Virus record (IMG/VR): IMGVR_UViG_3300008954_000001
Strand: one strand, 5' to 3'
DNA length: 64,000 bases
From: a virus
Lineage: Duplodnaviria > Caudoviricetes
Every line of letters starts with the position of its first letter. Position 1 is the stretch's first letter. Shown piece by piece: positions 30,606 through 47,584 of the stretch. The position numbers and the translations under genes were made by a program. Below the pieces are notes generated by a model. That model was given only the letters and a program-made list of their open reading frames with translations, made no database searches and had not been told where the DNA came from.

Positions 30606-31392
30606 TGGGACCATCTACATGAGCGGGCAATCGGATTGCTCAAGGTGCCATGGTAGGGGTGTGGTGGCTATCGACACTTTCAGTGTGGTTCCTTGTGAAT
30701 GTACGGTGCTCCGCAGCCTTGTTCGGAATGTGGATCGAGGCTGGAAGGGGCTGATGGCCGCACCTAACCTCGAAGGTGGGTCTGTTTTATTGGAGCAAGC
30801 ACAAGACCAAGAGAACTGCTGGATTACTTCAGATCGCCCGACTTTACGGGTACATGCAAAGCACACCGCTTTGCGGATGGGTCCGAAATGGAAGTTCAAT
30901 GTTGTTACCGACGCTGAATTGATTACCGCATGGCTGGCAACCGCAGGTTTGGCTGGTATGAAGATGCTTGATCCTGATATCATGCTGGAAGCGGCTCCCG
31001 TATCCCTCCGTAAACTGACTCTGATTGATATGGTTGAGCCTCCCGACACCCTCATTGTGATTTTGGGGGTAAAAGCGGCACGAAACGTAGCGATGCCTGA
31101 AGTGTTGATGGAAACCATCTCCCTGCGGAAAGCGGCGGGTAAGCCGTTATGGTTGATTGACCAGCCTCAAAAACCCTTCCGTGAAGGCCATCGTGCTTGG
31201 TCACAAGAAGTCCGAGATGCCTTATCAGGGTTTCGAGTGGTACGGCTCGACTCTTTGGCTCAAGGGCAAATGGCTTCTTTAGACTCGTTATTGGAACAGC
31301 CTAAAACTAAAACAACAAGTAGTCGTCGTACCAGAAGTCTATCGGGGGGATCAGGTGGTACTCGAACCCTCAAGAATGGGGGCGATGAATGA
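30562..31392 (+). CDS. DnaC/DnaI-like helicase-loader-type protein with N-terminal Zn finger (degenerate ATPase; start uncertain)
   Basis: CSRCHGRG...CEC; AAA+-like strands (LIVILGVK, LWLID); position directly before the helicase; no canonical Walker A. Confidence 0.45.
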   Translation: MPPYSKTQGTSMSGSGTIYMSGQSDCSRCHGRGVVAIDTFSVVPCECTVLRSLVRNVDRGWKGLMAAPNLEGGSVLLEQAQDQENCWITSDRPTLRVHAKHTALRMGPKWKFNVVTDAELITAWLATAGLAGMKMLDPDIMLEAAPVSLRKLTLIDMVEPPDTLIVILGVKAARNVAMPEVLMETISLRKAAGKPLWLIDQPQKPFREGHRAWSQEVRDALSGFRVVRLDSLAQGQMASLDSLLEQPKTKTTSSRRTRSLSGGSGGTRTLKNGGDE

Positions 31393-32972
31393 AATACTTG
31401 ATCCGATCATCAATCGTAGTCGATCCGGCGCAAGACAGACCAGCGGAAGCCTTTAAGAACTGTCTTAAACTTGAAGAGTCTGGGGTTGCTTGCGATATCC
31501 CCGAAGAACAAAAGATTTGGGATTTTGTTCGAGACTTCTCTCGTAACCACGGCCATGCCCCCAAAGTCCAAACTGTCCGAGAACACTTCTTAGGGCAGCG
31601 GGACGAGGATACGATCAACCGTTTAGAGCATTTGGTAACGGTCACTCCAATCTATCGGGGAGACTTTGAGCGGCATACCGTACAAATCGCAGAACAACGA
31701 TCTGTTCTTGGGCTGACTAACCTGTGTAAGCAGGTCGCCCGCATCGCTAACGATGGTATGGAGATCAAGGACGGGAAAAAGCAATTCCGACTCCAAGGCT
31801 CCAAAGATGCCATCCGATTTCTTGTGGACAAGTCGCATGACTATGTGACTCCCGTCTTTGGCTCCCGTCTTTCAGGGGAAGTGACACGAGACGGGGAAGC
31901 TGTTCTCGCTGAATACTCACGAGTAGAAAGCGATCCTTATGCGGGGATTGGTGCCATGACAGGCATCCAGCAAATGGATCAAGCTGTTCAAGGTGCTCAA
32001 AAAGGAGAGTTGTGGACACATGCCGCATACACGGGGGGTCTAAAATCCACCCTTATGCTCAACTGGGCTTACAACCAAGCAGTGATCTACGGGGGTAGCT
32101 CCTTGATCTTCTCCTTGGAGATGCCCTACGCCCAATGCCGTCGCATCCTGTACGCCATGCACAGCCTAAACCCTGCTTTACGAGACAAGCGTATCGAATT
32201 GGGGATTGAAGCCAGCGATGGTCCTAACAGAGGTTTGAATTACGCCGACATCAAGCACGGCAAGCTGTCCCCAAACGGCAAGAAGTATTACTTCGATCAT
32301 GTCACCCCACACTTCGCTGATGGCCCAACGGTCGCCCTACCAACCGGAGAACCTATTGGTCACGGAAAGATCAATATCGAAGTGGCCGATCCCGACAAAT
32401 CGGATTTTACGGTAGCTGACCTACGCTCGAAAGCTGAACTGATCTACGCAGAGAACCCCTTTAGCGTGATCTTTGTAGACCACGCTGGCCTTATGGCCCC
32501 TCGGTATCGGAACAGTTCGCAAACTGAACGGACCAATGAGGTCATGCGGGATCTCAAACGACTTGCGATGAGTTTCAACCGTGGACAAGGGATCGCTGTT
32601 GTCGCCTTGTTTCAGATCAACCGCCAAGGTTTCAAGGAAGCCTGTAAGCGCAAAGAGAAGGGGTTGCCTCCTCTCTACACTCTTGCGGATCTTGCTTATG
32701 CTAACGAAGCTGAAAAGTCCTCGGATGTTGTCACCGCTTCATTCATTGACGCAGAGCTTCGGAATCAAGGGCAAGTGCTCTTCCAATGTCTCAAAACAAG
32801 AGACATGGAACCTTTCGACCCATTTTATTCGAGGGTAGAGTGGCCTTGTCGGAGAATCTTACATTGTGACGATATCCCCGACTTTGGTGTGGATGGTCGA
32901 GAAAGGATTGCCCAACAAGCAGAAGCCCTTTCCGATCAACAAGCCCTCATCGATCAAATGTTAGACCTTTAA
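31389..32972 (+). CDS. dnaB: DnaB-like SF4 replicative helicase
   Basis: GELWTHAAYTGGLKST (Walker A variant), FSLEM, IFVDH, LFQINR, EAEKSSDVV. Confidence 0.8.
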   Translation: MKYLIRSSIVVDPAQDRPAEAFKNCLKLEESGVACDIPEEQKIWDFVRDFSRNHGHAPKVQTVREHFLGQRDEDTINRLEHLVTVTPIYRGDFERHTVQIAEQRSVLGLTNLCKQVARIANDGMEIKDGKKQFRLQGSKDAIRFLVDKSHDYVTPVFGSRLSGEVTRDGEAVLAEYSRVESDPYAGIGAMTGIQQMDQAVQGAQKGELWTHAAYTGGLKSTLMLNWAYNQAVIYGGSSLIFSLEMPYAQCRRILYAMHSLNPALRDKRIELGIEASDGPNRGLNYADIKHGKLSPNGKKYYFDHVTPHFADGPTVALPTGEPIGHGKINIEVADPDKSDFTVADLRSKAELIYAENPFSVIFVDHAGLMAPRYRNSSQTERTNEVMRDLKRLAMSFNRGQGIAVVALFQINRQGFKEACKRKEKGLPPLYTLADLAYANEAEKSSDVVTASFIDAELRNQGQVLFQCLKTRDMEPFDPFYSRVEWPCRRILHCDDIPDFGVDGRERIAQQAEALSDQQALIDQMLDL

Positions 32973-32983: not shown

Positions 32984-33286
32984 ATGGATAGCGTAGAAAT
33001 TGGAACGGCAAATAAGAACCCTACAGTAAACATTGAACAACTTACCGAAGAGTTCGACACCCTAACATTCCTTGAACCCCGTGCCGATTTCGACCCCTGC
33101 ATTATCGGAGTGGTTCAACGAAACAACCAAGAACCTTCTTTGTGTTACGCCTATGAAAAGGTCATCCACGCTTTGAAAAGCATGGGCGGGATATCTGATG
33201 AAGAAGCTGAAGAGCACTTCTCCTTCAACATCATCGGAGCCTATGTGGGTAAGACCACCCCCTGCTTTCTATTTTCGGGGCAATAA
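32984..33286 (+). CDS. Conserved phage hypothetical protein
   Basis: DFDPCIIG...YAYEKVI...EAEEHFSFNIIGAYVG pattern common in phages (recalled, not searched). Confidence 0.65.
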   Translation: MDSVEIGTANKNPTVNIEQLTEEFDTLTFLEPRADFDPCIIGVVQRNNQEPSLCYAYEKVIHALKSMGGISDEEAEEHFSFNIIGAYVGKTTPCFLFSGQ

Positions 33287-33541
33287 ATGAGTAAGGCGGC
33301 TGAAACCTTTATCGACCAATTCACCCGCAAATTACTTGTCGATTGGGCGCACCATCAAATCACTGGTGGGGAAATAGGCAGTCCGCCCCCGTTAGAGGTG
33401 TGTGGCCCTCGCCAGTGCGCCTATGGCTACAAACCATACATCGAACACGCCATATCCAAAGGCTGGTTGTCGAAGGATGGGCAACGAGTTTTAGCAAGGG
33501 GTTTCTCTGTGGCTACTTCCGCTATCAAGCGAGGTAACTGA
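33287..33541 (+). CDS. Hypothetical protein
   Basis: Coupled ORF in the replication operon. Confidence 0.6.
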   Translation: MSKAAETFIDQFTRKLLVDWAHHQITGGEIGSPPPLEVCGPRQCAYGYKPYIEHAISKGWLSKDGQRVLARGFSVATSAIKRGN

Positions 33542-34122
33542 TGGGGAGAGCAAAAAAGAGGGCTGACCGAATTCGTGAAGAAGTGCCTCTGGATGCCGTT
33601 CTTGCTCGGTACGGCTACGATGTCATCGAGAAAAGCGACCGAGAGCAACAGTTCTCATGTGACCTTCATGGCGATGGATCAGACAATAAACCTTCGGCCC
33701 GATACTATCCCGACAGTTCGTCTTGGTATTGCTTCGCTTGCTCAAAGAGTCGGGATGCGATCTCGACAGTCATGTCTAAAGAAGGGAAGTCTTTCTCGGA
33801 AGCCTGTACCTCTTTAGAGAAAGACTACGGCCTCCCCGCCTTGCCTTGGGAAGAGGAAGATCGGCCACAACGGATCGACAGTGAGATCACTGTCTCCATG
33901 CCCCGCACCGCACAAGAGATCAGCGGGCACGTACTCAAAACCCTCAAAGCATTTTCAATCGGCAAAGATATTCCTCTCAATTCTCTCCTTCAATTGTGGG
34001 AAGCCCACGACAAGTTGGTTTTCCTTCATCAAGAAGGGCATTTGACGGAGGATCAAATCAAAGAAGGGATGGCTCGGATCGCTAAAACCGCCATGCGGGT
34101 AGCACGAGAGCAGACCCTATAA
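33541..34122 (+). CDS. Stand-alone CHC2 zinc-finger (DnaG primase Zn-binding domain) protein
   Basis: FSCDLHG...KPSA...WYCFAC...DAISTV; no TOPRIM domain. Confidence 0.8.
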   Translation: MGRAKKRADRIREEVPLDAVLARYGYDVIEKSDREQQFSCDLHGDGSDNKPSARYYPDSSSWYCFACSKSRDAISTVMSKEGKSFSEACTSLEKDYGLPALPWEEEDRPQRIDSEITVSMPRTAQEISGHVLKTLKAFSIGKDIPLNSLLQLWEAHDKLVFLHQEGHLTEDQIKEGMARIAKTAMRVAREQTL

Positions 34123-34176: not shown

Positions 34177-34764
34177 ATGAAGGTTGTCCATCTGGCCCGA
34201 AAACCCTTCAAAGGGACCGTAGCCCTCAATGTCCTTACCCATGGGGCGGGAGGGTTGAATATCAACGCTTCTCGTATCCGAGACGGGTCTGAAACTAATG
34301 AGGCCCCCCCTGAGTACATCCCCAACTATGAAAACGAAGTGTTCGGTAGTGGGATGGGTGGTGGAGCTTGGGCAAATACAAGCGGGCGGTGGCCAGCCAA
34401 CCTGATCTTTCAGCATCTTGAAGGCTGTGTTTGCAAAGGAACTAAAAAGGTAAAAGGGATCGCTGGTGGCTCTCATTCAGGGGTTGAGCACACTCATGCG
34501 GTTGGGGCAAAGCTCAAACGGCACGGGATTACTCGCCATAACGATTCTGACGGAAACGAAACCGTAGCCAATTGGGTCTGTGTAGAGGGTTGTCCAATAC
34601 CTGTCTTAGACAACCAAAGTGGGATCGTGCCTACGGGATCGTGGAACCGACAAAAAGACGGGGCGCACCCTTTCGGAAATGCCGCTGGAAGCGAATACAA
34701 TAACTGGAAGGTTGTAGATGAGCCTGAAGGTGGGGCCTCTCGCTTCTTTAAGGCGGTGAAATGA
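34177..34764 (+). CDS. Array module 1: stand-alone methyltransferase-insert-like protein (ARKP...GRWP...HxxxC...CxxxCP...GGASRFFK)
   Basis: Conserved blocks shared with five neighbours; no DPPY or FxGxG motifs. Confidence 0.75.
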   Translation: MKVVHLARKPFKGTVALNVLTHGAGGLNINASRIRDGSETNEAPPEYIPNYENEVFGSGMGGGAWANTSGRWPANLIFQHLEGCVCKGTKKVKGIAGGSHSGVEHTHAVGAKLKRHGITRHNDSDGNETVANWVCVEGCPIPVLDNQSGIVPTGSWNRQKDGAHPFGNAAGSEYNNWKVVDEPEGGASRFFKAVK

Positions 34765-35435
34765 AAGTTATCACTCTTGCTCGCAAGCCTTTTAGTGGAA
34801 CGGTTGCTCACAATATGCTTACGCATGGGTGTGGTGGACTCAACATAAACAAGTGTCGAGTAGGGGCTTCGGAGAGCGACGATTACGGACGCAGCGTAAC
34901 GAATAGTGATGGCACCATAAACGCCCATGGGGGTTTCAGTGGGAAAGCCTTCAAAATCAATGAAAGAGATGAGGAATACGCCAGCAACTACGCCCATACT
35001 TCAGGTCGATGGCCCTCTAATCTGATCTTTCAACACTGTGAAGATTGTCGGTGTGAAGGAATCAAGAAAGTAAAAGGGATTGCCGGAGGCTCAGAGCGAG
35101 TCTCATCTCCCCGATGGCGGCCATGTCCCAACTTCCGGTCCCATTCAGGGGTGGCGCAAACACATGAGGTTGGCGCAAAGCTCAAACGCCACCGTATCGC
35201 TCGCCACAATGATCCCGAAGGCAACGAAACGGTTGCTGATTGGGTCTGTGTTGAGGATTGCCCCATCAAGACTTTAGACGAACAGAGCATCGCTGGCGGT
35301 ATGCACAGTGCGGGGTCTTCTCGAAAGGCTTCACGTTCTGCTGGAAAGACAGGCATGTTTCCGATGGACGGGGACGGTCACCGTTTCGGAGATACTGGGG
35401 GTGCCTCAAGGTTCTTCAAACAGGTGAAGCCGTGA
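34761..35435 (+). CDS. Array module 2
   Basis: Same blocks; ATGA overlap with module 1. Confidence 0.75.
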   Translation: MKVITLARKPFSGTVAHNMLTHGCGGLNINKCRVGASESDDYGRSVTNSDGTINAHGGFSGKAFKINERDEEYASNYAHTSGRWPSNLIFQHCEDCRCEGIKKVKGIAGGSERVSSPRWRPCPNFRSHSGVAQTHEVGAKLKRHRIARHNDPEGNETVADWVCVEDCPIKTLDEQSIAGGMHSAGSSRKASRSAGKTGMFPMDGDGHRFGDTGGASRFFKQVKP

Positions 35436-36082
35436 AAGTTATTACTCTGGCTCGAAAGCCCCTTCAGGAAAGCACCATCACTTCCAATGTCCTGACACAC
35501 GGAGCGGGGGGCCTAAACATCGGTGCATGTCGGCTTTCTACTTCAGATAGCCTCAACGGTGGGGCTTACGCTGTGAACCCAACCCATCGGGCGGGTCAGG
35601 ATATGTGGACCCGTGATCGTAAAGGTGACACCAACTGTTTCAAACGGGGTGGGGCGGGCCATTACGAGCAACCTACGGGCCGCTGGCCAGCTAATCTGAT
35701 CTTTCAACACTTCGCTGAATGTAGATGCGAGGGGGTCAAGAAGGTAAAAAGCCACCCGCACTTAGGGCAAAAGAATCCAGAACTCACCAAGCAGTACAAA
35801 GGCGGTGTTTTCGGGGGCGGCGGGATAACCCCCGCTGGAGGTTATGCAGATGTTGATGGCAATGAAACTATAGCAAATTGGGTTTGTGCGGCTGGTTGTC
35901 CAATACCTGCTTTAGACAACCAAAGCGGTGTCTCGATTTCTTCGGGAGGTCGAATCGGCAACGCTCAAGGGATTTATACTAATCAAGGTCGAACAGGGTG
36001 GGGTACGGGCCATGAGGCTGGCGATCCCGGTTTCGGAGATGAGGGCGGGGCATCACGTTACTTCAAGGCAGTAAAGCCATGA
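35432..36082 (+). CDS. Array module 3 (GTG start; ORF track 35258)
   Basis: Same blocks; GTGA overlap. Confidence 0.75.
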   Translation: MKVITLARKPLQESTITSNVLTHGAGGLNIGACRLSTSDSLNGGAYAVNPTHRAGQDMWTRDRKGDTNCFKRGGAGHYEQPTGRWPANLIFQHFAECRCEGVKKVKSHPHLGQKNPELTKQYKGGVFGGGGITPAGGYADVDGNETIANWVCAAGCPIPALDNQSGVSISSGGRIGNAQGIYTNQGRTGWGTGHEAGDPGFGDEGGASRYFKAVKP

Positions 36083-36723
36083 AGACGATTACTCTTGCTC
36101 GAAAACCGTTTGATGGGACCGTAGCCCACAACATGCTTACGCATGGGTGTGGGGGTTTGAATATCAATACTTGTCGGATCACCTTAGAACCCAACAGTCG
36201 GTTGACCAAAGGCGGCTCATACTCAGGAAACCGTACAGGGAGTAACGCTTCCTCTATGTTCAACGGAGGAAACGGGAAGGTGGAATACACCCCACCCCCC
36301 GGAAGATGGCCCGCTAACTTAATCCTCCAACACCTTGAAGGGTGTAGGCGGGATGGGGTTAAGAAAGTCAAACCTTCCAATGGGTCAGGAAGAGCGGGTG
36401 CGGGGGCATCTGGATTCCAAACTTCCTACGTGGGGGGAGATTCTAAGGCAACAGGATTTACGGGCGGTTCTGTGGAAGAGGATGGCAAAGAAACCGTAGC
36501 CAATTGGATCTGTGAAGACGGCTGTCCCGTAAAAGCCTTGGATGAGCAAAGCGGGGTTTCTAAGTCTTCGGGAGGGCGTACCGCTAATATCTCCACCACC
36601 TCTACTATTTATGGAGGGGGCAAAGGATTAGGGCAAGACTTGACCGCTGATTCAGTGCGTGGAGATCCGGGTTTCGGAGACACGGGTGGGGCTTCCCGCT
36701 TCTACAAGCAGGTGGTCCGATGA
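36079..36723 (+). CDS. Array module 4
   Basis: Same blocks; ATGA overlap. Confidence 0.75.
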   Translation: MKTITLARKPFDGTVAHNMLTHGCGGLNINTCRITLEPNSRLTKGGSYSGNRTGSNASSMFNGGNGKVEYTPPPGRWPANLILQHLEGCRRDGVKKVKPSNGSGRAGAGASGFQTSYVGGDSKATGFTGGSVEEDGKETVANWICEDGCPVKALDEQSGVSKSSGGRTANISTTSTIYGGGKGLGQDLTADSVRGDPGFGDTGGASRFYKQVVR

Positions 36724-37334
36724 AAGTAATCACACTGGCTCGGAAACCATTTGAAGGCACGGTCGCCAATAATGTTCTTACACGGGGTTGTGGTGGGATC
36801 AATATCGATGGTGCTCGCATCGCCGCCCCAAATGAAACGATTACGACCCACACGAAATCTAACGAAGCCGCCAAAGGTAAAGGCATCTTTGGAGCTTATG
36901 GTGGGTTCAAGACTCACCAGACTCCGGGTCAAAAGCTCGGACGGTTCCCCTCGAACACCATCTTTCAGCATCGCCCTGAATGTGTCTGTTTAGGCGCACA
37001 GAGGGTCGCTGGCCGAAGCTCTTGTAAAACCTCAAGTCTTGGGCAGGGGCGTAATGTCCCCGTCACCAGTGGTATCTACGGAGCCAAAAACAGCTTTATT
37101 GGTGTGGCCCATGTGGATGCCGATGGCACAGAAATCATCAATGCGTGGGAATGTGTAGATGGTTGTCCTGTGAAAGCGTTGGACGATCAAAGTGGTGTTC
37201 TCACCAGTGGGAAGATGGCCCAAGAGGTGAAGGGCAACCAGTTCAATGTCTACGGTAAAATGTACGACCGCTATGTCGAAACCCATGGGGATTCAGGTGG
37301 AGCCTCCCGCTTCTTTAAGCAGGTGAAACCATGA
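36720..37334 (+). CDS. Array module 5
   Basis: Same blocks (GRFP variant); ATGA overlap. Confidence 0.75.
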   Translation: MKVITLARKPFEGTVANNVLTRGCGGINIDGARIAAPNETITTHTKSNEAAKGKGIFGAYGGFKTHQTPGQKLGRFPSNTIFQHRPECVCLGAQRVAGRSSCKTSSLGQGRNVPVTSGIYGAKNSFIGVAHVDADGTEIINAWECVDGCPVKALDDQSGVLTSGKMAQEVKGNQFNVYGKMYDRYVETHGDSGGASRFFKQVKP

Positions 37335-37966
37335 AGGTGCTCACGTTGGCTCGCAAACCCTTCAAGGGGACCGTAGCCCACAATATGCTTACGCATGGTT
37401 GTGGTGGGATCAACATAAAGGCATCAAGAGTGGGTTCTGAACAGGTTTCGACCCACAGCCGTGGATCAAATCAAGCATTCCCCAAACGGCCAACTGAAAC
37501 CACTGTGGAGGAGTCGGGGCGTAAAGCCCGTCAAGACATATTGGATCACGCTCCCCGAACGGGAAGATGGCCCACCAACCTCATACTAAGTCATCTCGAC
37601 GGGTGTAGAATCGAAGGCACTCGCAAGGTCAAATGCAGCAATCCCACAAGGGCTGACGGGACCATCCGAACAGGTGACAATGAGATATACGGGAAAAGAG
37701 ACGACGTTCCCTTGTCGAACACCAACTACGCAGACGAGAGCGGTATGGAAGAGACTCCTAACTGGGTTTGTGTTGAAGGTTGCCCTGTAAAAGCCTTGGA
37801 CGAACAGAGTGGGGTTTCGCAAAGCCCGTCTACATACACCCGTTCCGTCGCCTCTGGCAATTTAATGGTGTGGGGGGAAGGAGTGGGAGATAAGGCTGGA
37901 GTGGAGTCTCTTAACTATGGTGACAGCGGAGGGGCTTCCCGTTTTTTCAAACAGGTGAAGCCGTGA
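37331..37966 (+). CDS. Array module 6
   Basis: Same blocks; ATGA overlap. Confidence 0.75.
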   Translation: MKVLTLARKPFKGTVAHNMLTHGCGGINIKASRVGSEQVSTHSRGSNQAFPKRPTETTVEESGRKARQDILDHAPRTGRWPTNLILSHLDGCRIEGTRKVKCSNPTRADGTIRTGDNEIYGKRDDVPLSNTNYADESGMEETPNWVCVEGCPVKALDEQSGVSQSPSTYTRSVASGNLMVWGEGVGDKAGVESLNYGDSGGASRFFKQVKP

Positions 37967-38400
37967 GGGGGTTGGTTAGGTATCAACTCAAAGACCCGAC
38001 ATGGGGGGAGTTCACAGTTTTTAGACCGATCCCAAAAGACGGGGATCTTTGGGGCTGTCTCACCTCCCTAAAAGGCACCGAATGGGAGAAAATGATCCCC
38101 GTTGTTTCGGGGGAAAACCTATCCCATGCCCTACACGGGTATATCGCCCCCCTGCTGAAAGAAATCGGGCCAGAGCCACGGTTGTTGGCGAAGCAGGTAG
38201 GCCAGAAACAAGGCCGCTGTGCGCTCTATAAAACCTGTGTGGCCGCCGAACCCAGTTGCCTTCCCGCTGGACCCCCACCTGATTGTTATGAAGCCCCTAT
38301 GGAAGATTATGGAGCTTCTTTTGCCGCCACAACCGTTGTTTTGTGCTGGAAAACAGGGGGTTGGGTGGTTGTCGTGGGGGAGGGTGAATTTTCGATTTGA
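37963..38400 (+). CDS. Hypothetical Cys-containing protein
   Basis: GTGA-coupled to module 6; C-x4-C-x6-C-x7-C cluster. Confidence 0.65.
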   Translation: MRGLVRYQLKDPTWGEFTVFRPIPKDGDLWGCLTSLKGTEWEKMIPVVSGENLSHALHGYIAPLLKEIGPEPRLLAKQVGQKQGRCALYKTCVAAEPSCLPAGPPPDCYEAPMEDYGASFAATTVVLCWKTGGWVVVVGEGEFSI

Positions 38401-38427
38401 GGGGGCCGTTTGCCTTCCATTTCAGTA
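38401..38427 (+). promoter_or_regulatory. Degenerate class A element GGGGG-CCGTT-N12-CAGTA
   Basis: Same spacing as the five class A copies; followed by CAAT; upstream of the polymerase gene. Confidence 0.35.
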
Positions 38428-38461
38428 CAATTTGTAGAGAAAGCGAGGAGTAGAAGTAAAA

Positions 38462-41161
38462 ATGTCCTTTTTCGAGCAGTTATATGACTCTGTAAGGCCA
38501 GAAATTGAGCAACATCCGTGGATGACACAATGCACAATGACTCTGGTAACCACTGAAGCACAGCTAAAGGCGTGTGTGGATCAGTGTATTGCGGCGGGGT
38601 TGTACGCCTTGGATTTGGAGACCACGGGGCTGGATAGCCGAGTTTTTGACGGGGAAACCCGTGCGAAGATCGTAGGTTTTTGTCTCTCTCCTGATGAAAA
38701 TACGGGGTTTTATATCCCTGTACGACACCACAAGGGGGTCAATATCCCTTGGACGGTAGCCCACCGTGAGATGTCCCGATTGGGGGCTTCTGATGCCGTC
38801 GCCATTTTCCACAACGCTAAGTTTGACCAAGAGTTTTTGGAGTTCACTGGACTCGGATCGATTGGTGATTGGGATGACCCAAAGCGGTGGCACGATACGT
38901 TAATCATGGCGTATATCCGAAACCAGAAGGCCCGCCAAAAGGGGCTGAAGTTTCTGAGTAAGTCAGAGCTTGATTGTGAAATGATTGAGTTGCCTGACCT
39001 ATTTGGACCTGCCCATAAAGGCGACTTGGACTTTTCCTTGCTCGATTCGGCATGGGAACCCTGTCTTTGGTATGCCGCAGCCGACGCTATTTGCACCTTT
39101 AGGCTATTCAAGCACCTTGCTAAAGAGCTTGAAAGGCCGATTGAGGGCATTGCCCCCCTTTCGGGCATCTACACCATCGAAAAACTGGCTTTGACTGCGA
39201 CACGGTGGATGGAGCGGTGCCGCATCCAAATCGACCAAAGCAAAGCAAAGGAACTGATTCGTATCGGCCAAAAAGAGTGGTGGGAGTCTGTTTCCGATGT
39301 GTACAACTCAGCCCAAGACACTTTGGGGCGGGATGTGCGTCCTGCATGGGTCAAGTTGTTAGCTGGCGACCTTAAAAGTGGCCTGTCTTTTGACCCCGAC
39401 GAAGTAAGCCCTTCTTATATGGATCGGGTAAAGGAAGCTCGAAGCCATGCGAGGCGTATGAAGATGGATGCCGATGGTGTTGTCACAAAAGAAGTGACCT
39501 CATTGACATCAGATAAGAGCGAATCGGTGAACTTCCCTTTAGTGTACGACATTCTATCGGGGGATCAGCTTGGTAAGCTCTTTCGTGAACTGAAGGTTCC
39601 AGGGCTTCGGGCTACCGAAAAGTCAGGCCAAGTGAAGACCAGCAAAGATGAATTGGATCGAGTTGTTGAAGAGGCTGGCGAACGGTTCCCCTATATGGCG
39701 AAGATCAAGCGGTTCCGAGAGGTATCGAAGGCTCTATCGACCTATTTGATTTCCATGGTCGAGGACGCTGCTCCAGATGGATCGCTGAAAGCTAATTTCA
39801 ATGGTTTGCGTACAGACACGGGTCGCTTTTCGGCCCCTGTATCCAAACGCCCTAAAGTAGATGGTGGTTGTCGTGTGCCTTGGCAGGGGATGCCTTCGGG
39901 CTACGACCCCAACCGCCCCGAATGTTTGAAACGCTTGCGTGAATGTATTGTTGGGCGAGGCAATCGAGTTTTGATTGCCATCGACTACGCAGGGGTTGAG
40001 CTTCGTATCGCAACGAATCTTTCACTCGAACCCAAGTGGGCGAACGAGTATTTCCGTTGCGCCGATTGTGAGAAGAAGTTCGATAAAGGGGATGGAAAAG
40101 TCACCCCCTCTGCACCACCCCCGTTCTGTCCGAAATGTGGTTCAGATAAGATTGGGGATCTCCATAGCTTGACCACCATTATGTTGTATGGCGATGCCAT
40201 CAGGAAAGACAAGAAGGCATTCAAAGCCAAGCGACAGATTGGGAAGCAAACCAACTTCCTACTCTGTTACGGCGGTGGGCCTAATGCCCTTGTGCAACAG
40301 ATTGGTTTGGATCGGAGTGAGGCCGAACGGGTCAAGAGCACCTTCGACAAGCAATACCCCGCCTTGCGGAATTGGTGGGACCGCCAACACCGTTTTGGTC
40401 GCAAGTATGCGTTTGTATGCACGGCGTTCGGTCGTCGCTGTCCTGTACCTGACATCAACATGCCGAGATACGACAAGAAAACGGGTCGGCGTAACGGTTC
40501 TTTCATTTCCAAAGCTGAACGAAATGCGGTGAACGCTCCAGTACAAGGGACGTCTGCCGATATAACTAAGATGGCTATGGGCCTAATCTACCGCCACGCC
40601 AAAAAGAACGGCTGGTTGGATCGTATGGGAATGGTAATCACGATGCACGACGAACTTGTTTTCGATGTAGAGCCTTCGTTGGTGAAGGAATTCCTCGATG
40701 TCGTGCCTCGGATCATGTCCTCTAATAAGATGGTTCGTAGCCGAAAGTGGCCTATCCCCCTTACCGTAGACATTGAGATGGGTAAGGATTGGACGGTCCC
40801 TTACAATATTACCGAAATCCAAGAAACGAAAAAGGTTCCCGATGGGTTGAGGGATCTTCTTGGTGATTATGTGGATGACCTTATTGCGGACACCCCCACA
40901 GTTGAGGCACCTACCGATGCCCCACCTAAAACGAACGGGAAGTTCCAATATGAAATTAGTGGTCCACTTACAGTTCAGTTAGCGATCCGATTGGCGAAAG
41001 CCATTGAAGCTGCCCGTTCCCCTACGGGGAAGATTCTGAGTTTAGGAGGACCACACGGGGCAGTAGTAGCTAAACGTGCCTTTCAAGGCCGTCCCCCCCG
41101 TATTAATACGGAGGTTTTTATGAGTCTCGTTGGAGATTCAAAAGGAGAATATGATGAGTAG
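38462..41161 (+). CDS. polA: Family A DNA polymerase with 3'-5' exonuclease
   Basis: Exo ALDLETTG, FHNAKFD, YAAADA; TDTGRFS; motif A IDYAGVELR; motif B RQIGKQTNFLLCYG; motif C MHDELV. Confidence 0.92.
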   Translation: MSFFEQLYDSVRPEIEQHPWMTQCTMTLVTTEAQLKACVDQCIAAGLYALDLETTGLDSRVFDGETRAKIVGFCLSPDENTGFYIPVRHHKGVNIPWTVAHREMSRLGASDAVAIFHNAKFDQEFLEFTGLGSIGDWDDPKRWHDTLIMAYIRNQKARQKGLKFLSKSELDCEMIELPDLFGPAHKGDLDFSLLDSAWEPCLWYAAADAICTFRLFKHLAKELERPIEGIAPLSGIYTIEKLALTATRWMERCRIQIDQSKAKELIRIGQKEWWESVSDVYNSAQDTLGRDVRPAWVKLLAGDLKSGLSFDPDEVSPSYMDRVKEARSHARRMKMDADGVVTKEVTSLTSDKSESVNFPLVYDILSGDQLGKLFRELKVPGLRATEKSGQVKTSKDELDRVVEEAGERFPYMAKIKRFREVSKALSTYLISMVEDAAPDGSLKANFNGLRTDTGRFSAPVSKRPKVDGGCRVPWQGMPSGYDPNRPECLKRLRECIVGRGNRVLIAIDYAGVELRIATNLSLEPKWANEYFRCADCEKKFDKGDGKVTPSAPPPFCPKCGSDKIGDLHSLTTIMLYGDAIRKDKKAFKAKRQIGKQTNFLLCYGGGPNALVQQIGLDRSEAERVKSTFDKQYPALRNWWDRQHRFGRKYAFVCTAFGRRCPVPDINMPRYDKKTGRRNGSFISKAERNAVNAPVQGTSADITKMAMGLIYRHAKKNGWLDRMGMVITMHDELVFDVEPSLVKEFLDVVPRIMSSNKMVRSRKWPIPLTVDIEMGKDWTVPYNITEIQETKKVPDGLRDLLGDYVDDLIADTPTVEAPTDAPPKTNGKFQYEISGPLTVQLAIRLAKAIEAARSPTGKILSLGGPHGAVVAKRAFQGRPPRINTEVFMSLVGDSKGEYDE

Positions 41162-41486
41162 TACAGAAAACAATCCAGAAAACATTGAGGAAATCCTCAA
41201 ACTATGGGCACCGACCGTGATCAACATGGTTGAGCGGCAAGCTCGTACAGACTTTCTGCTAACTCTGCTCGAAGAACACGGGTTCTTTCCAAAAGGCTTC
41301 AATGAACTGGGAGATATTATCTTGGATAAGCTCCGCACACATGGCGATATTGAAGCAGTCCGAGAGGAAGCCCTGAAAACAAAGGTAATCCCTTGGGATT
41401 ATGCTCAAAAAGTCGGAAGGCTTAAAACTAAGATGCACAAGACCGATGCGGGTATCGCCAGCATCGCCCGACGACTCCTTCTATAA
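41130..41486 (+). CDS. Hypothetical protein (start probably about 41151-41154)
   Basis: AAGGAG RBS near 41142. Confidence 0.6.
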   Translation: MEIQKENMMSSTENNPENIEEILKLWAPTVINMVERQARTDFLLTLLEEHGFFPKGFNELGDIILDKLRTHGDIEAVREEALKTKVIPWDYAQKVGRLKTKMHKTDAGIASIARRLLL

Positions 41487-41530
41487 AACCTCCTTGGTAG
41501 GCATGGGTATTATGAACCCAAGGAGTTTCG

Positions 41531-42286
41531 ATGAAGAAGGACTTGTTCAATGAGTGCTTTGATGAACGCTTGCCCCCGGCTGCGTTCAAACAAGTCTTTT
41601 GCGGCCATTGTCGGAACCCAACCTGCTCTTTAGCAGGTTGGGCCGCTGACCAATTTGGTGCTCGAAACGCTATCCAAGAAGAGCGTCTCTACAACCCAAA
41701 TGTCGCCCACCCTGACGACCCTCGATATGGTCGCCTAAAAGAACAGGACTTCCCTTCTCTCTTCCATAAAGCAGTCCGTTTAGAAATAGCGGATCGTAGA
41801 GGGGATTGGAGCCTTCCTGAGTCTAATGTGGTTCTGGCTCCAATTGATCCCGAACCAGCCTCTTCAGAATCACAAGACTTAGTGAAGGAAGCTGTTCTTT
41901 CCCTAAAGAGGGAAAACAACCCTGAAACGATTTCTGATGAGGTTATAGATCGGGGTTCCTCGGATACGCCTGAGAGCGAACTCCGGGATCAAGAGGATCA
42001 AGATCAGGTCACCCCCCCTGAAATTCCCCCCGAACAGCCAGAGCAAAATCTGGCATCGAAAACAGAAAAAACCGAAAAAAGTTTGGAGGCTTCTGCGAAA
42101 GCCTCCGTTGAACGCCACCAACACCCGAATCAAAAAAATACGGATTTTGAAGAAGGTTTGATGTTGGAGGGGGCTTCGGAATTTCCTTCTGACGAAAAAA
42201 CTAAGCAGCAACGAGTTCAGGACTCTTGGAAGCCCTCCAAAGTGATCGAACCTGGCTCCACCGTGAATATGGGAAAAAAGAAATGA
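41531..42286 (+). CDS. Hypothetical protein with N-terminal CxxC-x4-C and acidic low-complexity C-half
   Basis: FCGHCRNPTC; AAGGAG RBS. Confidence 0.7.
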   Translation: MKKDLFNECFDERLPPAAFKQVFCGHCRNPTCSLAGWAADQFGARNAIQEERLYNPNVAHPDDPRYGRLKEQDFPSLFHKAVRLEIADRRGDWSLPESNVVLAPIDPEPASSESQDLVKEAVLSLKRENNPETISDEVIDRGSSDTPESELRDQEDQDQVTPPEIPPEQPEQNLASKTEKTEKSLEASAKASVERHQHPNQKNTDFEEGLMLEGASEFPSDEKTKQQRVQDSWKPSKVIEPGSTVNMGKKK

Positions 42287-43290
42287 GCAAAGCCGAAGAA
42301 GATAAATTAGAAGAACGCTTGGGCGAGATCGCCCGCAAACTTTACGAAGACTCTCCCGAACTCCAAGAAATCATCGATAAGGTGAACAGTGGGGAGTTGG
42401 ACGAGTCCGAGGCTATGGCTCAAATGATGCGGTCTGTGTCTGAAAACGCCGAATTGGAAACCAGCCTCACTACGTTTGCGAAAGAGGAAATGGCAAACAT
42501 TGAAAGCGACCTAAAGGCCCAAAACCCCGCTCTCTTTCAGGCGGCCTCTGGACTTCCAAAGCTCGACCCTATGTTTGAAGCCCGCCTTTATGAGCGTATT
42601 CAATTCGATGAGGACGCTCCTGAGTTACGGGTCGGCCCCCTCCCCCCAGGAGTGAAGCCCGCCGTTCCCGTTCTAAATGCTTCTCCGAACCCTGTGGCCC
42701 TTGGCGCAGCCTTGAAGAACGCTTCAACCGAAATGGATGCAGAAATCGCTGCCCTCCTCGAAACCGGGGGGCAACGAGAAACCGCCCTCACCAAAACAGG
42801 ACACTCCAACCTTCCCCAACCCACGGGGTATCAGCCAGGGGCTTTGCCTACTTTGGTGAATGTTGCCGTACCCTCTGGAGCCGCTTTAGCCTTATTCACC
42901 GTGCCAGAAAACCAAGAGTTGGCTTGGTCCGCCGCTGTGACCACTCAAGGGCGGCGTAGTGCTTCAATGACTATCCAACGCCTAATCACGGAGCATTTAG
43001 GTCGAGTTGGCTTTGATGTGAAAAGCCGTAACATGGTGAAATCAACCGAAGGTATCCTCGCAAAAGCTACATGGACCTTCTCTATTGCGGGGTCGGGTGC
43101 TGAATCCACCCAAAGCAACTTCAGCCCCGTGTCTAATGCCGCCGCAGCGATTGCTAACGAAATCGCCAATAACTTCACGGGTTCAGACGGTATGGTGGAT
43201 ATATCTACCCCATTATGGTTCGAGATAACCACTGTCGATCTTATTGATGAGCGACAGGTTGGATGGGCCGCACTTGTACGGAGTCGATGA
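42283..43290 (+). CDS. Hypothetical protein
   Basis: ATGA-coupled start at 42283. Confidence 0.7.
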   Translation: MSKAEEDKLEERLGEIARKLYEDSPELQEIIDKVNSGELDESEAMAQMMRSVSENAELETSLTTFAKEEMANIESDLKAQNPALFQAASGLPKLDPMFEARLYERIQFDEDAPELRVGPLPPGVKPAVPVLNASPNPVALGAALKNASTEMDAEIAALLETGGQRETALTKTGHSNLPQPTGYQPGALPTLVNVAVPSGAALALFTVPENQELAWSAAVTTQGRRSASMTIQRLITEHLGRVGFDVKSRNMVKSTEGILAKATWTFSIAGSGAESTQSNFSPVSNAAAAIANEIANNFTGSDGMVDISTPLWFEITTVDLIDERQVGWAALVRSR

Positions 43291-43610
43291 TGGCTAAAGG
43301 AACCCCAAGCGAAATCGCCGCAGCTTGTTGCGAGCTTCAAGATGCCAGAATGCGATCTGCCCAAGACGGCTATTGGAGGGTTGTTTTGACCCCCAACAAT
43401 ACAATTGGAAAGATTCTAAAGAAGACTCTTTCTGCTTGTGGAGGTGGCTCAGGCCGAACGGAAACTTTCACCAATCGAGGAAAAGTATCCGTCACCTCAG
43501 ACCCAATACCTTTTGGCGACCCTGACGCAATCCTTATCCGTGTAGGTTGGTGGGGAAACCCCCCTTATGAAGCAGCCGAAACATGGCAAACTCACTGTAA
43601 AGGCACCTGA
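43287..43610 (+). CDS. Hypothetical protein
   Basis: ATGA-coupled start at 43287. Confidence 0.6.
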   Translation: MMAKGTPSEIAAACCELQDARMRSAQDGYWRVVLTPNNTIGKILKKTLSACGGGSGRTETFTNRGKVSVTSDPIPFGDPDAILIRVGWWGNPPYEAAETWQTHCKGT

Positions 43611-43612
43611 AA

Positions 43613-44038
43613 ATGGCTGATAGGTTGTGGACCGTTTTGATTAAAGGCGGAGCGGAGGTATCATTTAAGGGGCAAGGGTCAATCCAACACCATGACGGAA
43701 CTCGCAGTATCTGGAAAATTCGAGGTACGAGAGCCGCCGTTGATGAAGTTTTGGCTACGGCTCAAAGTATCGGGTGTTTTGTGGAAGTGTTTGAAGGCAG
43801 TCAAACTGAAGAACAACAAGCTATTCGGAACAATCTGTTAGGGGTTCAACGAGAAGGCTTTGTGTTCCAGACCGAGAAATGCCCCGAATGTTATTGGTTC
43901 GATCCCCTTACCAAAAACAACTGTGGGCATACCGATTGGCCACTCGAAACCATAGCCGCTTCACGCCAATTCCATGAGAAGGCCCGGTTGGACCAAAGCT
44001 CGTGTCCTCTCAATGGTTCGCCTATTGAGCAGGTATAG
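43613..44038 (+). CDS. Hypothetical protein with Cys cluster (CPEC...C...C)
   Basis: Contiguous ORF. Confidence 0.6.
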   Translation: MADRLWTVLIKGGAEVSFKGQGSIQHHDGTRSIWKIRGTRAAVDEVLATAQSIGCFVEVFEGSQTEEQQAIRNNLLGVQREGFVFQTEKCPECYWFDPLTKNNCGHTDWPLETIAASRQFHEKARLDQSSCPLNGSPIEQV

Positions 44039-44061
44039 CGACAGCCTGAGGGAGAATTCCT

Positions 44062-44400
44062 ATGAATAAGACCTTACTTTTGATGGCCCTTTTAGGGTTC
44101 GGCACCCCCGCATTAGCGGAAGATGCTGTGCCTAAGAATGAGGCCCTGCACCCCACTACGGAAGGGACAGCGGTCGTGTACCCTGTGTTCTACGCTGTGG
44201 AATTTTCCGTTGATGGGTACTCGGTTGTGCATCCCAAAAAAGTTGACGGATCGTACACAACTCCCGTGAAGCCTAAAGCTGCACCCCTTCCCCACTCAAA
44301 AGAAGTGCTAAATGTGCTTCCTATCCAAATCTCGCCCAAAATCTTTCTGAGCAGACTTACAAAAGTCATTGATGATCAGCTTGATACACCTAAGCCCTGA
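44062..44400 (+). CDS. Secreted hypothetical protein
   Basis: Signal peptide MNKTLLLMALLGFGTPALA; GAGGGAG RBS. Confidence 0.6.
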   Translation: MNKTLLLMALLGFGTPALAEDAVPKNEALHPTTEGTAVVYPVFYAVEFSVDGYSVVHPKKVDGSYTTPVKPKAAPLPHSKEVLNVLPIQISPKIFLSRLTKVIDDQLDTPKP

Positions 44401-44442
44401 CCTTTCCCCTACGATCTTTCGTATAAGAGGGGGAGGGCAGAA

Positions 44443-45105
44443 ATGGCCAGAAAGAGAAAAGACCAACGCTTCGTTGTAGATGACGCTGTAGAGCAACAGG
44501 TCTTCTCTCTCTTGGGCGATCAAAGTAAGCAAGCCCAAACCCTTATCGAGCTTCGGGAAGCCCTTACAACGCAAGTGGAGCGGGTTTCTGAGGCTTTAGA
44601 AGCTATCTCTACCGACCTCTTGGCCCAAACCGTTGCCCTTGGCACAGGGAGGCGGGGGGAAGCTCGCTTTGAAGTCGATCCAGATGGGAAATTGGTTCTG
44701 GTTGTATCCTATGGTGGGGAAGCTCTCGATCCACTAAATCGAGGGGACTTGAAGCCAGCTTGGATCAAACGAAATGATCGAAAGCCTCGCCAAAGCGTAG
44801 AACCCCCCAAAGCCGTAGAACCCCCCAAAAAGAAGAAGGGGTTCATCAAGACCGCACCCGCCATCTCCAAACCCACTCCTGTCACTCCTGTCACTTCAAA
44901 TATGGATGACTTAGATGATCTCTTGGTGGGTTTTGGAGAGGACGAACTCACCGAAACGGTAAGTGCGGAAGTACCTGAAGCCTACACGCCCCCTGCCCGA
45001 TCTCGCCTACGGCGGATACCAGGGCAAAAGGTAACGAAGTCAAAAGGTAACGGAAAAGGGTCTCTTTCGAGTTTATTGTCTTTAGACAAAGAAAACGAGG
45101 ACTGA
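44443..45105 (+). CDS. Hypothetical protein with coiled-coil N-part and Pro/Lys-rich tail
   Basis: GGAGG RBS; xVEPPK and PVT repeats. Confidence 0.65.
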   Translation: MARKRKDQRFVVDDAVEQQVFSLLGDQSKQAQTLIELREALTTQVERVSEALEAISTDLLAQTVALGTGRRGEARFEVDPDGKLVLVVSYGGEALDPLNRGDLKPAWIKRNDRKPRQSVEPPKAVEPPKKKKGFIKTAPAISKPTPVTPVTSNMDDLDDLLVGFGEDELTETVSAEVPEAYTPPARSRLRRIPGQKVTKSKGNGKGSLSSLLSLDKENED

Positions 45106-45153
45106 CCCTTACGGGGCAATCCTCGTTTCATAAGCTCTTTTGAGAAGCGTCTG

Positions 45154-45711
45154 TTAGCCAGCGAAAGTAAGCTGAAGCGTACAACCCTGACCACCACCGT
45201 TGTCCGACCATGTGCAAGTAAGCACATCATCAGCAGACAGGTCGGCGGCTTCGTCTTCGAGAGTCAGTTCGCCCAAGCCAGTGACAGCAGCACCGTCAGC
45301 AGCCGTGACCATATCGTCTCCATCGGAGTTCTGAATGGTCATCGTAGCACCAGCATCGGAAGCACCAGAGGTGACAATGCTTGCACCAACGAGCTTGCCC
45401 AACGCTCCAATCGCAACGACATCCGCATCAGCCAAGACCACTGAAAGGGTCTGACCAACGGAATCGCCACGCTCGAAGGTAGCGGAAGCGAAACCAGCAG
45501 AAATCGCAGAGCGAATCACGCCAGACTCGAAGCTACGAGCAACGTCAGCGGTGTAAACAAGGTCGCTGGTTCCACTTTCGGGAACATACACGGCACCAGC
45601 CTTGCTGTTCTCGTGAATGGGGCCATCGGTGGCATCATTTACATCAGAAATAAGAAGGGAACCGTCGCTTGCGCCAAGGTGGGTTACCCGAATGAACAAT
45701 CCTTCAGCCAT
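45154..45711 (-). CDS. Acidic Ala/Gly-rich probable virion protein, paralog B
   Basis: Starts MAEGLFIRV; shares DVARSFESG with the upstream paralog. Confidence 0.65.
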   Translation of the reverse strand: MAEGLFIRVTHLGASDGSLLISDVNDATDGPIHENSKAGAVYVPESGTSDLVYTADVARSFESGVIRSAISAGFASATFERGDSVGQTLSVVLADADVVAIGALGKLVGASIVTSGASDAGATMTIQNSDGDDMVTAADGAAVTGLGELTLEDEAADLSADDVLTCTWSDNGGGQGCTLQLTFAG

Positions 45712-45735
45712 GATATTTCTCCTTAGATAGACTGT

Positions 45736-46314
45736 TTAGGCATCCGCACCAGCGAATGTGAGTTGAACCGTCGCCCGTTGAATGGCGGCGGCGGAAACAA
45801 GAGTGATAGTAAGAACTTCGTCGGCGGCTACATCAGCGGCTTCGTCGGCCAGCGTCAAGTCTGACAGGCCGTCGAGGGCTGCGACATCGGCGGCCACATT
45901 TCCATCCAACACTCCACCAGCCGAGGCACCTTCGACGTTGATGGTTGCGGGATCGTTAAGTGCGCCAGAAGAGATGATTTTCACGCTTACGATTTTGCCG
46001 AGAGCGGCGGCTACTTGAGCCGTTCCGTGGGCTACGACAACTGCGATAGTCTCGCCAGCCGAATCGCCTCGCAAGAACTCTGCCGTAAGCGTACCTGCGT
46101 CAATCATTCCTCGAAGGCATCCGCTTTCAAAGCTGCGAGCAACATCGCCTGAATAAGCAACATCCACTGAACCGCCACCCGGAACATAAAGAGCACCGGA
46201 TCGAGTCAACCCGTGTTGGGGACCGTCCGTTGCATCGTAACAATCGTCAAGCAAAACGGAGGGAGTGGTACTCGCCGCTGCGTTGCTGACTCTGATAAAT
46301 AATCCTTCAGCCAT
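45736..46314 (-). CDS. Acidic Ala/Gly-rich probable virion protein, paralog A
   Basis: Starts MAEGLFIRV; class B element upstream. Confidence 0.65.
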   Translation of the reverse strand: MAEGLFIRVSNAAASTTPSVLLDDCYDATDGPQHGLTRSGALYVPGGGSVDVAYSGDVARSFESGCLRGMIDAGTLTAEFLRGDSAGETIAVVVAHGTAQVAAALGKIVSVKIISSGALNDPATINVEGASAGGVLDGNVAADVAALDGLSDLTLADEAADVAADEVLTITLVSAAAIQRATVQLTFAGADA

Positions 46315-46390
46315 TTTTCCTATCTCCTAATCGAGAGGTTCAGTTTCAATTTACCCCCGACAGGAGGTGCCTCATTCTACTTGTGGGGAC

Positions 46391-46405
46391 TATAAAGGCT
46401 CTAAC
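46391..46405 (-). promoter_or_regulatory. Class B element GTT-AGAGC-CTTTATA
   Basis: Intergenic consensus match upstream of 46314. Confidence 0.5.
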
Positions 46406-46466
46406 GGGAGCAAAGGACATAAATCCCCTCCAATCTTCCACCCTTCTACAAATATAGAGGGGGTAT

Positions 46467-47492
46467 CTAAACGAAAACGCCATTGAATTGCTGAGTGCAT
46501 CGCACGAAAGTCGTGCATTTGCTCAACTGTTTGAGCGTGGGGGCACCTACATAGGTACAGGTAGAACGGACTCCGCCGAGAATGTTTTTTATAGTGTCAT
46601 CTACGGACCCTCGAAAAGGAACCTCAACGAGCCGCCCCTCTGAGGATCGGTAGTCAGCTATCCCTCCATGGTGTTTGTCCATGGCGGCATCTGAACTCAT
46701 ACCGTAGAACTGAACATTGGATTCACCGTTCTTCTCAACCACGGTGCCGCCCCCTTCTGTGTGGCCAGCAAACATGCCACCGAGCATGACGAAATCAGCC
46801 CCCGCAGCGAAGGCTTTGGCTACATCTCCTGGGCAGGTACACCCGCCATCGGCAATAACGTGGCCCCCAAGCCCGTGAGCGGCATCCGCACACTCGATCA
46901 CGGCACTAAGCTGTGGATACCCCACCCCCGTCTGAATACGGGTTGTACAGACCGATCCTGGGCCAATACCGACCTTTACGATGTCGGCCCCGCTCATAAT
47001 CAGTTCTTGGGTCATGTCGGCTGTTACGACATTTCCAGCAATAATAGTGACATGGGGACATTTCTCTCGAACCTGTCGCACGAAATCAACGAAATGTTCG
47101 GAATACCCGTTCGCAATATCGATACAGACAAACCGAAGGCATTGTCGGGTAAGGAGCTTTTCAGTCTTTTCCCAGTCAGCCCTTCCTGTTCCTGTACTGA
47201 TGGCGATCCTGTCGGGATCAACCATCTCCGCATAAAGATCCCAATCCCGATGACCGTAATGCTTCGCTATACAGGTGAACAGGCCCCGTTCCGCTAAGGC
47301 GTGGTGCATGTTGAATGTACCCACCCCATCCATATTGGCGGCCATGATCGGGATACCGCTCCATGATTTCTGGCTGTGCTTAAATGTGTAGGTCCGAAAT
47401 AGATCCACCTCTTTTCGAGAGCGAAGAGTGCTCCGCTTAGGGCGGATCAGGACATCTTTGTAGTCGAGCTTGAGGTCGCTTTCGATTCGCAT
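46467..47492 (-). CDS. guaC: GMP reductase
   Basis: [81 protein letters not shown]; likely ATG at 47492. Confidence 0.95.
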
Positions 47493-47530
47493 AGGCCATC
47501 TCTTGGCAAGGCTAATCAAACTCTACCCAC

Positions 47531-47561: not shown

Positions 47562-47584
47562 CAGGGTCGGGTATTTAGAGCAGA

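Follow-up and report, generated by a model that had tools for sequence, protein, structure and literature searches.

Six tandem genes with a conserved Cys/His site

The 64,000-nucleotide stretch of virus DNA analysed here (the window) is part of the 152.5-kb IMG/VR virus record IMGVR_UViG_3300008954_000001, which is rated 36% complete and whose DNA comes from marine metagenomes. Six plus-strand genes at 34177-37966 (T1 to T6), placed between a DnaG-like gene and a PolA gene, encode what appear to be stand-alone recognition modules of DNA methyltransferases. A preliminary description had reported six paralogs of 195-224 aa with four constant blocks, and both the open reading frame (ORF) calls and the alignment agree with it. 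T1 (34177..34764, 195 aa), T2 (34761..35435, 224 aa), T5 (36720..37334, 204 aa) and T6 (37331..37966, 211 aa; also P0045) were defined by ORF, alignment and a match to PHROG 3008, with an E value of 5.8e-8 for T1. T4 (36079..36723, 214 aa) matches the same family at E 4e-14, and T3 (35432..36082, 216 aa) was defined by start mapping and alignment. T3 starts with a GTG codon at 35432; a longer ORF starting with TTG at 35258 was an artefact of the ORF rule and was not retained. All junctions between T genes, including the ATGA of T1 and T2 and the GTGA at the start of T3, are 4-nt ATGA or GTGA overlaps, as expected for translational coupling, and a Shine-Dalgarno-like AGGTG, made by conserved C-terminal codons (KQVKP), lies a few bases before the next T start.

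T2 to T6 are 43-59% identical to the first copy, and the six-protein alignment contains 45 invariant columns, which include the four constant blocks as well as H80, C84, C135 and C139. Between the constant blocks lie three variable, gap-rich stretches in all six proteins. The H-x3-C ... W-x-C-x3-CP site is invariant in the six modules, as first described, and its H, C, C and C residues are also invariant across 142 stand-alone homologues. Such conservation, and the size of the family retrieved with a profile of the six (see below), far exceed what chance would give. The hallmarks of a stand-alone T protein, namely a length of ~190-230 aa, a start of the form (M)xxITLARKP, the GRWPAN and LDxQS motifs and an end just after GGASRFFK, were found in every copy and likewise characterise the 142 stand-alone homologues. 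All six proteins are net basic (+3 to +9).

In agreement with the initial observation that DPPY and FxGxG are missing from the modules, regular-expression searches revealed neither the catalytic motif IV ([DNS]PP[YFWH]) nor the motif I FxGxG that binds S-adenosylmethionine (SAM) after HPTxKP in any of the six; an FGGGG string in T3 sits in a Gly-rich loop. A Pfam scan of the six proteins gave no match to PF01555 or to any other methyltransferase family, and at E<=1 neither the C5 core PF00145 nor Methylase_S PF01420 was matched. Lacking DPPY, FxGxG and a PF01555 score, the modules are thus not methyltransferases themselves.

Relationship to beta-class methyltransferases

All six proteins match PHROG 3008, annotated as 'DNA methyltransferase', over their first 80-120 residues, with E values of 6e-8 to 4e-14, which answers positively the profile comparison that had been suggested for the modules. 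When 50,697 phage records were searched by tblastn, the first third of the module was located inside hundreds of annotated methyltransferases, and the whole module was present in just one record, the 485-kb uncultured phage LR745208.1. The 515-aa enzyme encoded there contains the entire module, including SHNEDC and CTPDCP, followed by HPTVK and DPFLGSGTTG; when compared by tblastn to the genome of the window itself, it aligns only with the six genes, from residue 187/204 to residue 354-428.

For the analyses that follow, an N piece is defined by DPPY, a T piece by the recognition region, and a C piece by a pseudo-N half that lacks DPPY plus the SAM-binding motif. The domain occurs in bacterial genomes nearly always within one N-T-C protein, and such intact bacterial enzymes carry the H...C and W.C...CP motifs between DPPY and FxGSG. 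The six modules are homologous to the variable segment located between motif VIII and motif X of beta-class enzymes. The proposal that they represent the target-recognition region of beta-class N4/N6 enzymes is thus upheld by PHROG 3008, by the LR745208.1 alignment and by the N-T-C architectures of hundreds of relatives. Judged from its sequence, each T module comprises the target-recognition segment of a beta-class N6A/N4C DNA methyltransferase in full, with no further part of the enzyme.

The Cys/His site had been presented as new in the stand-alone modules; it is not peculiar to them, since intact N-T-C enzymes carry the site too, and it is therefore a feature of the recognition domain rather than of the stand-alone form. 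The residues involved suggest that the H-x3-C ... W-x-C-x3-CP subdomain is probably Zn-binding. A T profile did not match any PDB sequence at E<=1, and an AlphaFold2 model of T4, with a predicted local distance difference test (pLDDT) value of 62, gave no match when compared to the PDB with Foldseek. The model of a full-length enzyme matches CcrM, M.BceJIV, M.RsrI and other beta-class cores only outside its poorly modelled T region. The Cys/His recognition domain is thus without a solved counterpart.

Enzymes in separate pieces in related phages

A profile built from the six modules retrieved 14,682 cluster representatives at E<=1e-3. Most listed family members are unnamed in their source databases. 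T-only proteins of ~200-225 aa account for 178 of the 255 family proteins that were retrieved, and further members contain two to five T units per chain, as in N-T-T-C or T-T-T-C. Four metagenomic proteins (P0121, P0122, P0123 and P0186) are chains of 900-1160 aa with three to five full or partial T units in a row, the partial ones corresponding to profile positions ~76-209, that is, the Cys/His subdomain plus the tail. These chains are fused counterparts of the gene array.

In a set of 77 IMG/VR loci, the ORFs were classed by means of N, T and C profiles. T-only genes are present in 45 loci, and a fused enzyme alone in 26. An N-only gene and a C or T-C gene both lie within 10 kb in 34 of the 45 T-only loci, with one of the two in 6 loci and neither in 5. 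Across the 77 loci, 52 junctions are 4-nt overlaps. The gene orders include N-T-C, T-N-C, T-N-T-C, C-N-T-T and N-T-T-N-T-T-C, and locus L004 reads T-N-T-N-N-C. On this sequence evidence, the enzyme is routinely spread over three kinds of gene in contigs of huge phages. GTDB genomes seldom contain the split form, which was found there on viral-looking contigs. At least five complete T-sized genes, followed by a 294-aa PF01555 protein, are present in the closest relative of the array (66% identity, on a contig of 8.3 kb), where a truncated ORF at the contig edge may be a sixth T gene.

The N-only proteins (~190 aa) span the N terminus through DPPYG up to ...ALKPAWEPVCIGVKK, and within their DPPY motif D29 and P31 are invariant while P30 and Y32 are conserved at >=90%. 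In the C-only proteins (~230-280 aa), HPTVKP and DPFxGSG are invariant, and the copy of the N half has GEPT-like residues in place of DPPY. Both the N and the C profiles match CcrM, M.RsrI, M1.HpyAVI and M.MboIIA. The strands that connect the pieces are present twice, first where N ends and T begins, and a second time where T ends and within C.

The C-type proteins form a large family of their own (3,534 members at E<=1e-10). C-only members such as L004:13053-13796 and L010:8572-9390 are complete beta-class folds that lack a recognition domain; they are probably scaffolds that bind SAM without being catalytically active, which recalls METTL14 beside METTL3.

A candidate core in the genome of the same phage

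The window had been described as devoid of a methyltransferase core, and this extends to the whole 152.5-kb record, in which no core was detected by PF01555, by tblastn, for which four intact enzymes as well as N and C pieces served as queries, or by custom N and C hidden Markov models used unfiltered. T6 was found without change on two longer contigs (281,784 bp and 244,087 bp) as well as in Logan runs, the longest contig on record being 323,540 bp; no RNA run is listed among the sequencing runs. The 244,087-bp JGI contig, Ga0105019_1000018, begins inside the array and matches window positions 34450-47836 at 99.96-99.98%. A ~130-nt insertion was noted in the otherwise 99.97%-identical JGI contig (L178:8849-8958, compared to window ~43277-43298).

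A search with the C protein of a relative identified P0466, which shares a Logan run with T6; through the Cpn60 gene next to it, the P0466 locus could be placed on Ga0105019_1000018 at 200,398-221,984, on the opposite strand. The core cluster, at ~217-220.5 kb of this contig, comprises an MT-A70 gene, a T-C fusion and three N genes. Since array and core cluster are both on Ga0105019_1000018, the core lies ~214 kb from the array in the same genome. A search of the full genome for a core devoid of the segment had been suggested; N genes with DPPY and a T-C protein with the SAM motif were found, and the C part has a short T of its own.

The first listed gene of the cluster encodes an Amidase_2 protein. 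It is followed by the MT-A70 family protein (197 aa, DPPW; L209:1478-2071), whose gene is coupled to that of the T-C fusion. The latter, of 385 aa, consists of a short T without the Cys/His subdomain, a pseudo-N half, HPTVKP and DPFMGSGSTG. A 69-aa zinc ribbon comes next, and then a 32-aa ORF ending in DPPYG with a 163-aa N remainder, an intact N-only gene (285 aa, DPPY) and a second 32-aa ORF ending in DPPYG with a 193-aa N remainder. The MT-A70 gene occupies the position beside the T-C fusion that is usually held by an N-only gene, and its product may either work with the T-C protein as catalytic partner or represent a second methylase.

Short ORFs of 31-43 codons that stop directly after DPPYG, with the N remainder (starting MGKxWD) in the -1 frame, were observed in 11 cases, ten of them distinct and one a second copy from the same phage (L209:3431-3529 and L209:4886-4984; L007, L008, L009, L039, L041, L183 and L190; eight contigs besides the array's phage). 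The arrangement resembles either a programmed -1 frameshift at GGC-TGA or a further, conserved split that yields a catalytic peptide of 32 aa.

Genomic context and origin of the array

The plus-strand order around the array is DnaB-like helicase, two small ORFs, DnaG-type zinc ribbon, T1 to T6, a 145-aa ORF and PolA, and no terminator-like site occurs on this strand of the run before 40483. The helicase gene (31389..32972) belongs to the same operon and was assigned through PF03796 on the identical gene in L005. The DnaG-type CHC2 zinc-ribbon gene (33541..34122; PF01807, E 3.5e-8) lies 55 nt upstream of T1, and the family A DNA polymerase gene (38462..41161), assigned through PF00476/PF01612 on an identical gene, is downstream of the array; its product is 53% identical to that of LR745208.1. 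A 100-aa ORF between the DnaB-like and DnaG-like genes (32984-33286) matches phrog_13182, a family of unknown function, at E 1.6e-17; the N-terminal part of a C-only protein also has a weak tblastn match in this region (E 0.003), which was not taken as meaningful.

The 145-aa ORF (37963..38400, plus strand), joined to T6 by a GTGA junction, gave no Pfam, PHROG or NCBIfam match. A 40%-identical homologue directly follows the T-T genes of a C-N-T-T cluster in the relative G002, which indicates that this ORF travels with T genes.

T genes remote from the core are usual: solitary T genes occur in the relatives G002, G004 and G005, one in each, 36-135 kb from the N/C cluster. Those of G002, G005 and L035 are located between DnaB and DnaG/PolA, as in the window. 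The order DnaB, T, DnaG, PolA with a single T was established by Pfam in L014 (G005) and L061 (G002), and by gene sizes only in L035.

Comparison of the six copies yielded proportions of synonymous differences (pS) of 0.68-0.84, which are saturated, and of nonsynonymous differences (pN) of 0.28-0.44, with nonsynonymous to synonymous rate ratios (dN/dS) of 0.17-0.30 where these could be computed. All frames are intact, and the decay that had been named as a sign against function was not seen. The six T genes are under purifying selection, and the copies are old. No two copies share an exact DNA match longer than 21 nt, and the conserved blocks are only 60-80% identical at the DNA level. The array of L005 and L006 is identical to that of the window, base by base, and in L178 2 bases differ within the first 8.8 kb, T2 to T6 included.

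In a tree of 77 T domains the six modules do not form one clade and lie scattered among T domains that are fused to N and C pieces or encoded beside them. T1 and T2 are sisters (100/87), T4 groups with the N/C-adjacent T genes of L010 and L026 (support of 92-94), and T5 groups with the T domain of the L041 T-C fusion (90/82). A recent tandem duplication was considered as the origin of the array and rejected, since the six copies are not monophyletic and synonymous sites are saturated. The best match of T2 in G002 is a T of the C-N-T-T cluster (51%), and a cluster T is also the nearest there to T3 (41%); for T1, T5 and T6 the nearest relative in G002 is its replisome T. The T-T-ORF-X-Y-Z part of the G002 cluster has its counterparts in T2 to T4, the 145-aa ORF and the genes that follow PolA. 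Having cluster-like T2 to T4 and replisome-like T1, T5 and T6, the array thus joins modules of two origins, with the C and N genes left behind.

Docking model and proposed mechanism

In order to model a complex of module and core, T4 was combined with the N and C proteins of G002 (L010 N and C). The model reached an ipSAE (interaction prediction score from aligned errors) of 0.90, with 0.43 for the best of 3 controls; the mark applied is reached by 58 of 80 solved complexes and by 2 of 110 mismatched pairs. Runs agreed in at least 59% of contacts, and the partners had pLDDT values of at least 56. The first strand of T (1-12) and the GRWPANLIL segment (76-84) pack on the pseudo-N strands 64-74 and 92-105 of the C protein, and T4 touches the C-terminal tail of the N protein (175-192). 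The most conserved T blocks are the two connector ends, which would have no obvious role unless the core is bound. The docking model supports binding of T to the core. Beta-class enzymes act as dimers in which recognition and catalysis are divided between two subunits (PMC7544214), and the docking model fits this division.

We thus consider it likely that the six genes encode exchangeable specificity subunits of a split beta-class (N6-adenine or N4-cytosine) methyltransferase. Homology, a split gene architecture with its spread, a core in the same genome and purifying selection are observations; assembly, Zn binding, the reading of DNA by the loops, stoichiometry and an anti-restriction role of the T subunits are what we infer. 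Each T subunit would consist of a connector strand (MKxITLARKP), a small helical GxGGLNI part, GRWPAN, the probable Zn subdomain with LDxQS, three hypervariable loops and a second connector (GGASRFFK). The catalytic DPPY half (N-only) and the SAM-binding half (C-only or T-C fusion) would be supplied by separate genes. Both conserved connector ends of T would dock on the core by adding strands to the sheet of the pseudo-N half in the C protein, T would also contact the tail of the N protein, and the variable loops would read DNA. Produced together with the replisome, the six subunits could allow one core to methylate several motifs on newly made phage DNA, and such methylation could protect it against host restriction.

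A more extended version has, in our estimate, an even chance of being correct. Huge marine phages would possess a combinatorial amino-methyltransferase with several catalytic N pieces, some of them cut after DPPYG, one SAM scaffold that has a dead pseudo-N half, and a set of Zn-type readers, and the array's phage could thus address six or more motifs with one core. If true, this would be the first amino-methylase of Type II-like character whose specificity subunits are swappable and encoded by genes of their own, and it would offer a natural kit for programming methylation.

Evaluation of alternative explanations

Several observations weigh against a split methyltransferase with exchangeable subunits. 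The T model is of low confidence (pLDDT 62), and the docking result may reflect the likeness of the pieces to solved beta-class enzymes; as it was obtained with custom alignments and with N and C proteins from another phage, its calibration is only rough. The C protein of the phage is fused to a short T of its own, which may fill the T4 docking site in cis and leaves it unexplained how six more T proteins would join. Since the DPPY and the SAM motif are on different chains, and C has its own pseudo-N half, it is also unexplained how one active site would form. In addition, two of the three N genes of the array's phage are interrupted right after DPPYG, and the array is in a replisome operon, ~214 kb away from the core. 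This last point, together with the net basic charge of the six proteins and the single T genes found at the same place in L014, L061 and, by gene sizes, L035, could also be explained if T proteins were core-independent, sequence-specific DNA-binding proteins that serve the replisome or gene regulation without any methylation. We regard this as unlikely: replisome-linked T proteins do not have a clade of their own and are intermixed with T domains that neighbour N and C pieces or are fused to them, conservation is highest at the connector ends, through which T is joined to the core in intact enzymes, and N and C are present in every genome that could be checked. Very unlikely, in our view, is that the T proteins are decoys or regulators, which would titrate restriction-modification proteins of the host, or would compete with the fused short T and thereby damp or retarget the methylase of the phage without providing new specificities. 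Free T proteins that use the same modelled docking surface could indeed compete with the T already fused to the phage C protein. However, hypervariable loops under long selection in six old paralogues suit six targets better than one competitor, relatives encode C-only proteins that lack a fused T and need it in trans, and no likeness to known anti-restriction mimics was detected in Pfam, PHROG and other family scans. The DNA-binder and decoy options, both raised in the preliminary description, are thus less likely than a split core, and complementation of such a core in trans, raised there as well, is favoured by the interleaved N-only and C-only genes of relatives, the core in the same phage and the docking model.

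Type I hsdS shufflons are a precedent for specificity switching through cassettes, and the six copies, with conserved 5' and 3' ends and variable middles, could be regarded as silent cassettes that recombine into an expressed methyltransferase gene. Recognition domains are known to move between methyltransferase genes in Helicobacter (PMC3983042). This explanation is highly improbable here, since every copy has its own start codon, SD-like AGGTG and coupled stop-start overlap, exact matches between copies do not exceed 21 nt at 60-80% DNA identity in the conserved blocks, and the array is the same in L005 and L006 and nearly so in L178 (2 bases in its first 8.8 kb); nor is there a recombinase among the annotated neighbouring genes. 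Least probable of all is that the genes are decaying remnants of methyltransferase genes that have lost their cores, as might be suggested by the missing core beside the array and by the C and N genes that precede the T-T-ORF block in G002 and are missing in the window. Six intact frames with invariant motifs, saturated dS and restrained dN, as well as hundreds of stand-alone homologues that share the architecture, speak against decay. Both shuffling and decay were rejected for these reasons, and decay is already largely refuted by the invariant residues of the 142 stand-alone homologues and by the restrained dN.

Comparison with known systems

The enzyme class to which the parts belong is already known. 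T is homologous to the motif VIII-X segment of beta-class methyltransferases (PF01555; CcrM 6PBD, M.BceJIV 8URK, M.RsrI, M1.HpyAVI, M.MboIIA, EcoP15I Mod), and the N and C pieces match solved beta-class enzymes in sequence and fold. Unlike these, the phage enzyme would be encoded in three or more separate pieces, with alternative T and N genes. Two-piece phage methylases are represented in PHROG by phrog_3008 (the T and C part) and phrog_6025 (the N part), so that the cut between N and T is already there; phrog_3008 starts at the ARKP strand, and is matched by the modules at positions 2-84 and by C-only proteins at 143-213. Both families are annotated only as 'DNA methyltransferase', with no free-standing T, T arrays or Zn-type subdomain. 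A full-text literature search did not find a description of a free-standing beta-class recognition subunit, of arrays of such subunits, of a layout in three or more pieces or of the Cys/His subdomain. These comparisons point to an undescribed multi-subunit methylase with swappable specificity.

To our knowledge, sequence specificity is regarded as a built-in property of the chain in orphan and Type II-like amino-methyltransferases, and we know of separate specificity subunits only from Type I, Type IIB and similar systems, whose recognition domains are unrelated. Type I HsdS, the M.AhdI-type systems and Type IIB enzymes (BcgI B) place recognition on a polypeptide of its own that assembles with methylase subunits, as we propose here. 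The genes for the separate recognition polypeptide are often translationally coupled in such systems (PMC3510504, PMC3592466). HsdS, M.AhdI and BcgI B differ, however, in having gamma-class M partners and two recognition domains with coiled-coil spacers, and by Pfam they have no sequence relation to T; here there is one domain per protein, with six genes in a row, and the predicted core is of the beta class. No nuclease gene was found among the annotated neighbours of the array.

A functional parallel is that of Bacillus phages SPR, phi3T and rho11s, whose multispecific C5 enzymes carry several recognition modules side by side in one phage enzyme and so methylate several motifs (Trautner and co-workers, as cited in PMC7544214), likewise for evading restriction. 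Relatives of the T family that fuse 2-5 T units in one chain resemble these enzymes. In the Bacillus phage enzymes a single polypeptide contains every module, whereas each module is a protein of its own in the array, and the chemistry would be amino-methylation. As the parts are already separated in nature, the beta-class 'division of labour' would become directly testable, and the T modules, of ~200 aa, could serve for retargeting DNA methylation. A beta-class enzyme that draws its recognition domain from a bank of subunits would, if true, represent a new route to multispecific anti-restriction in phages.

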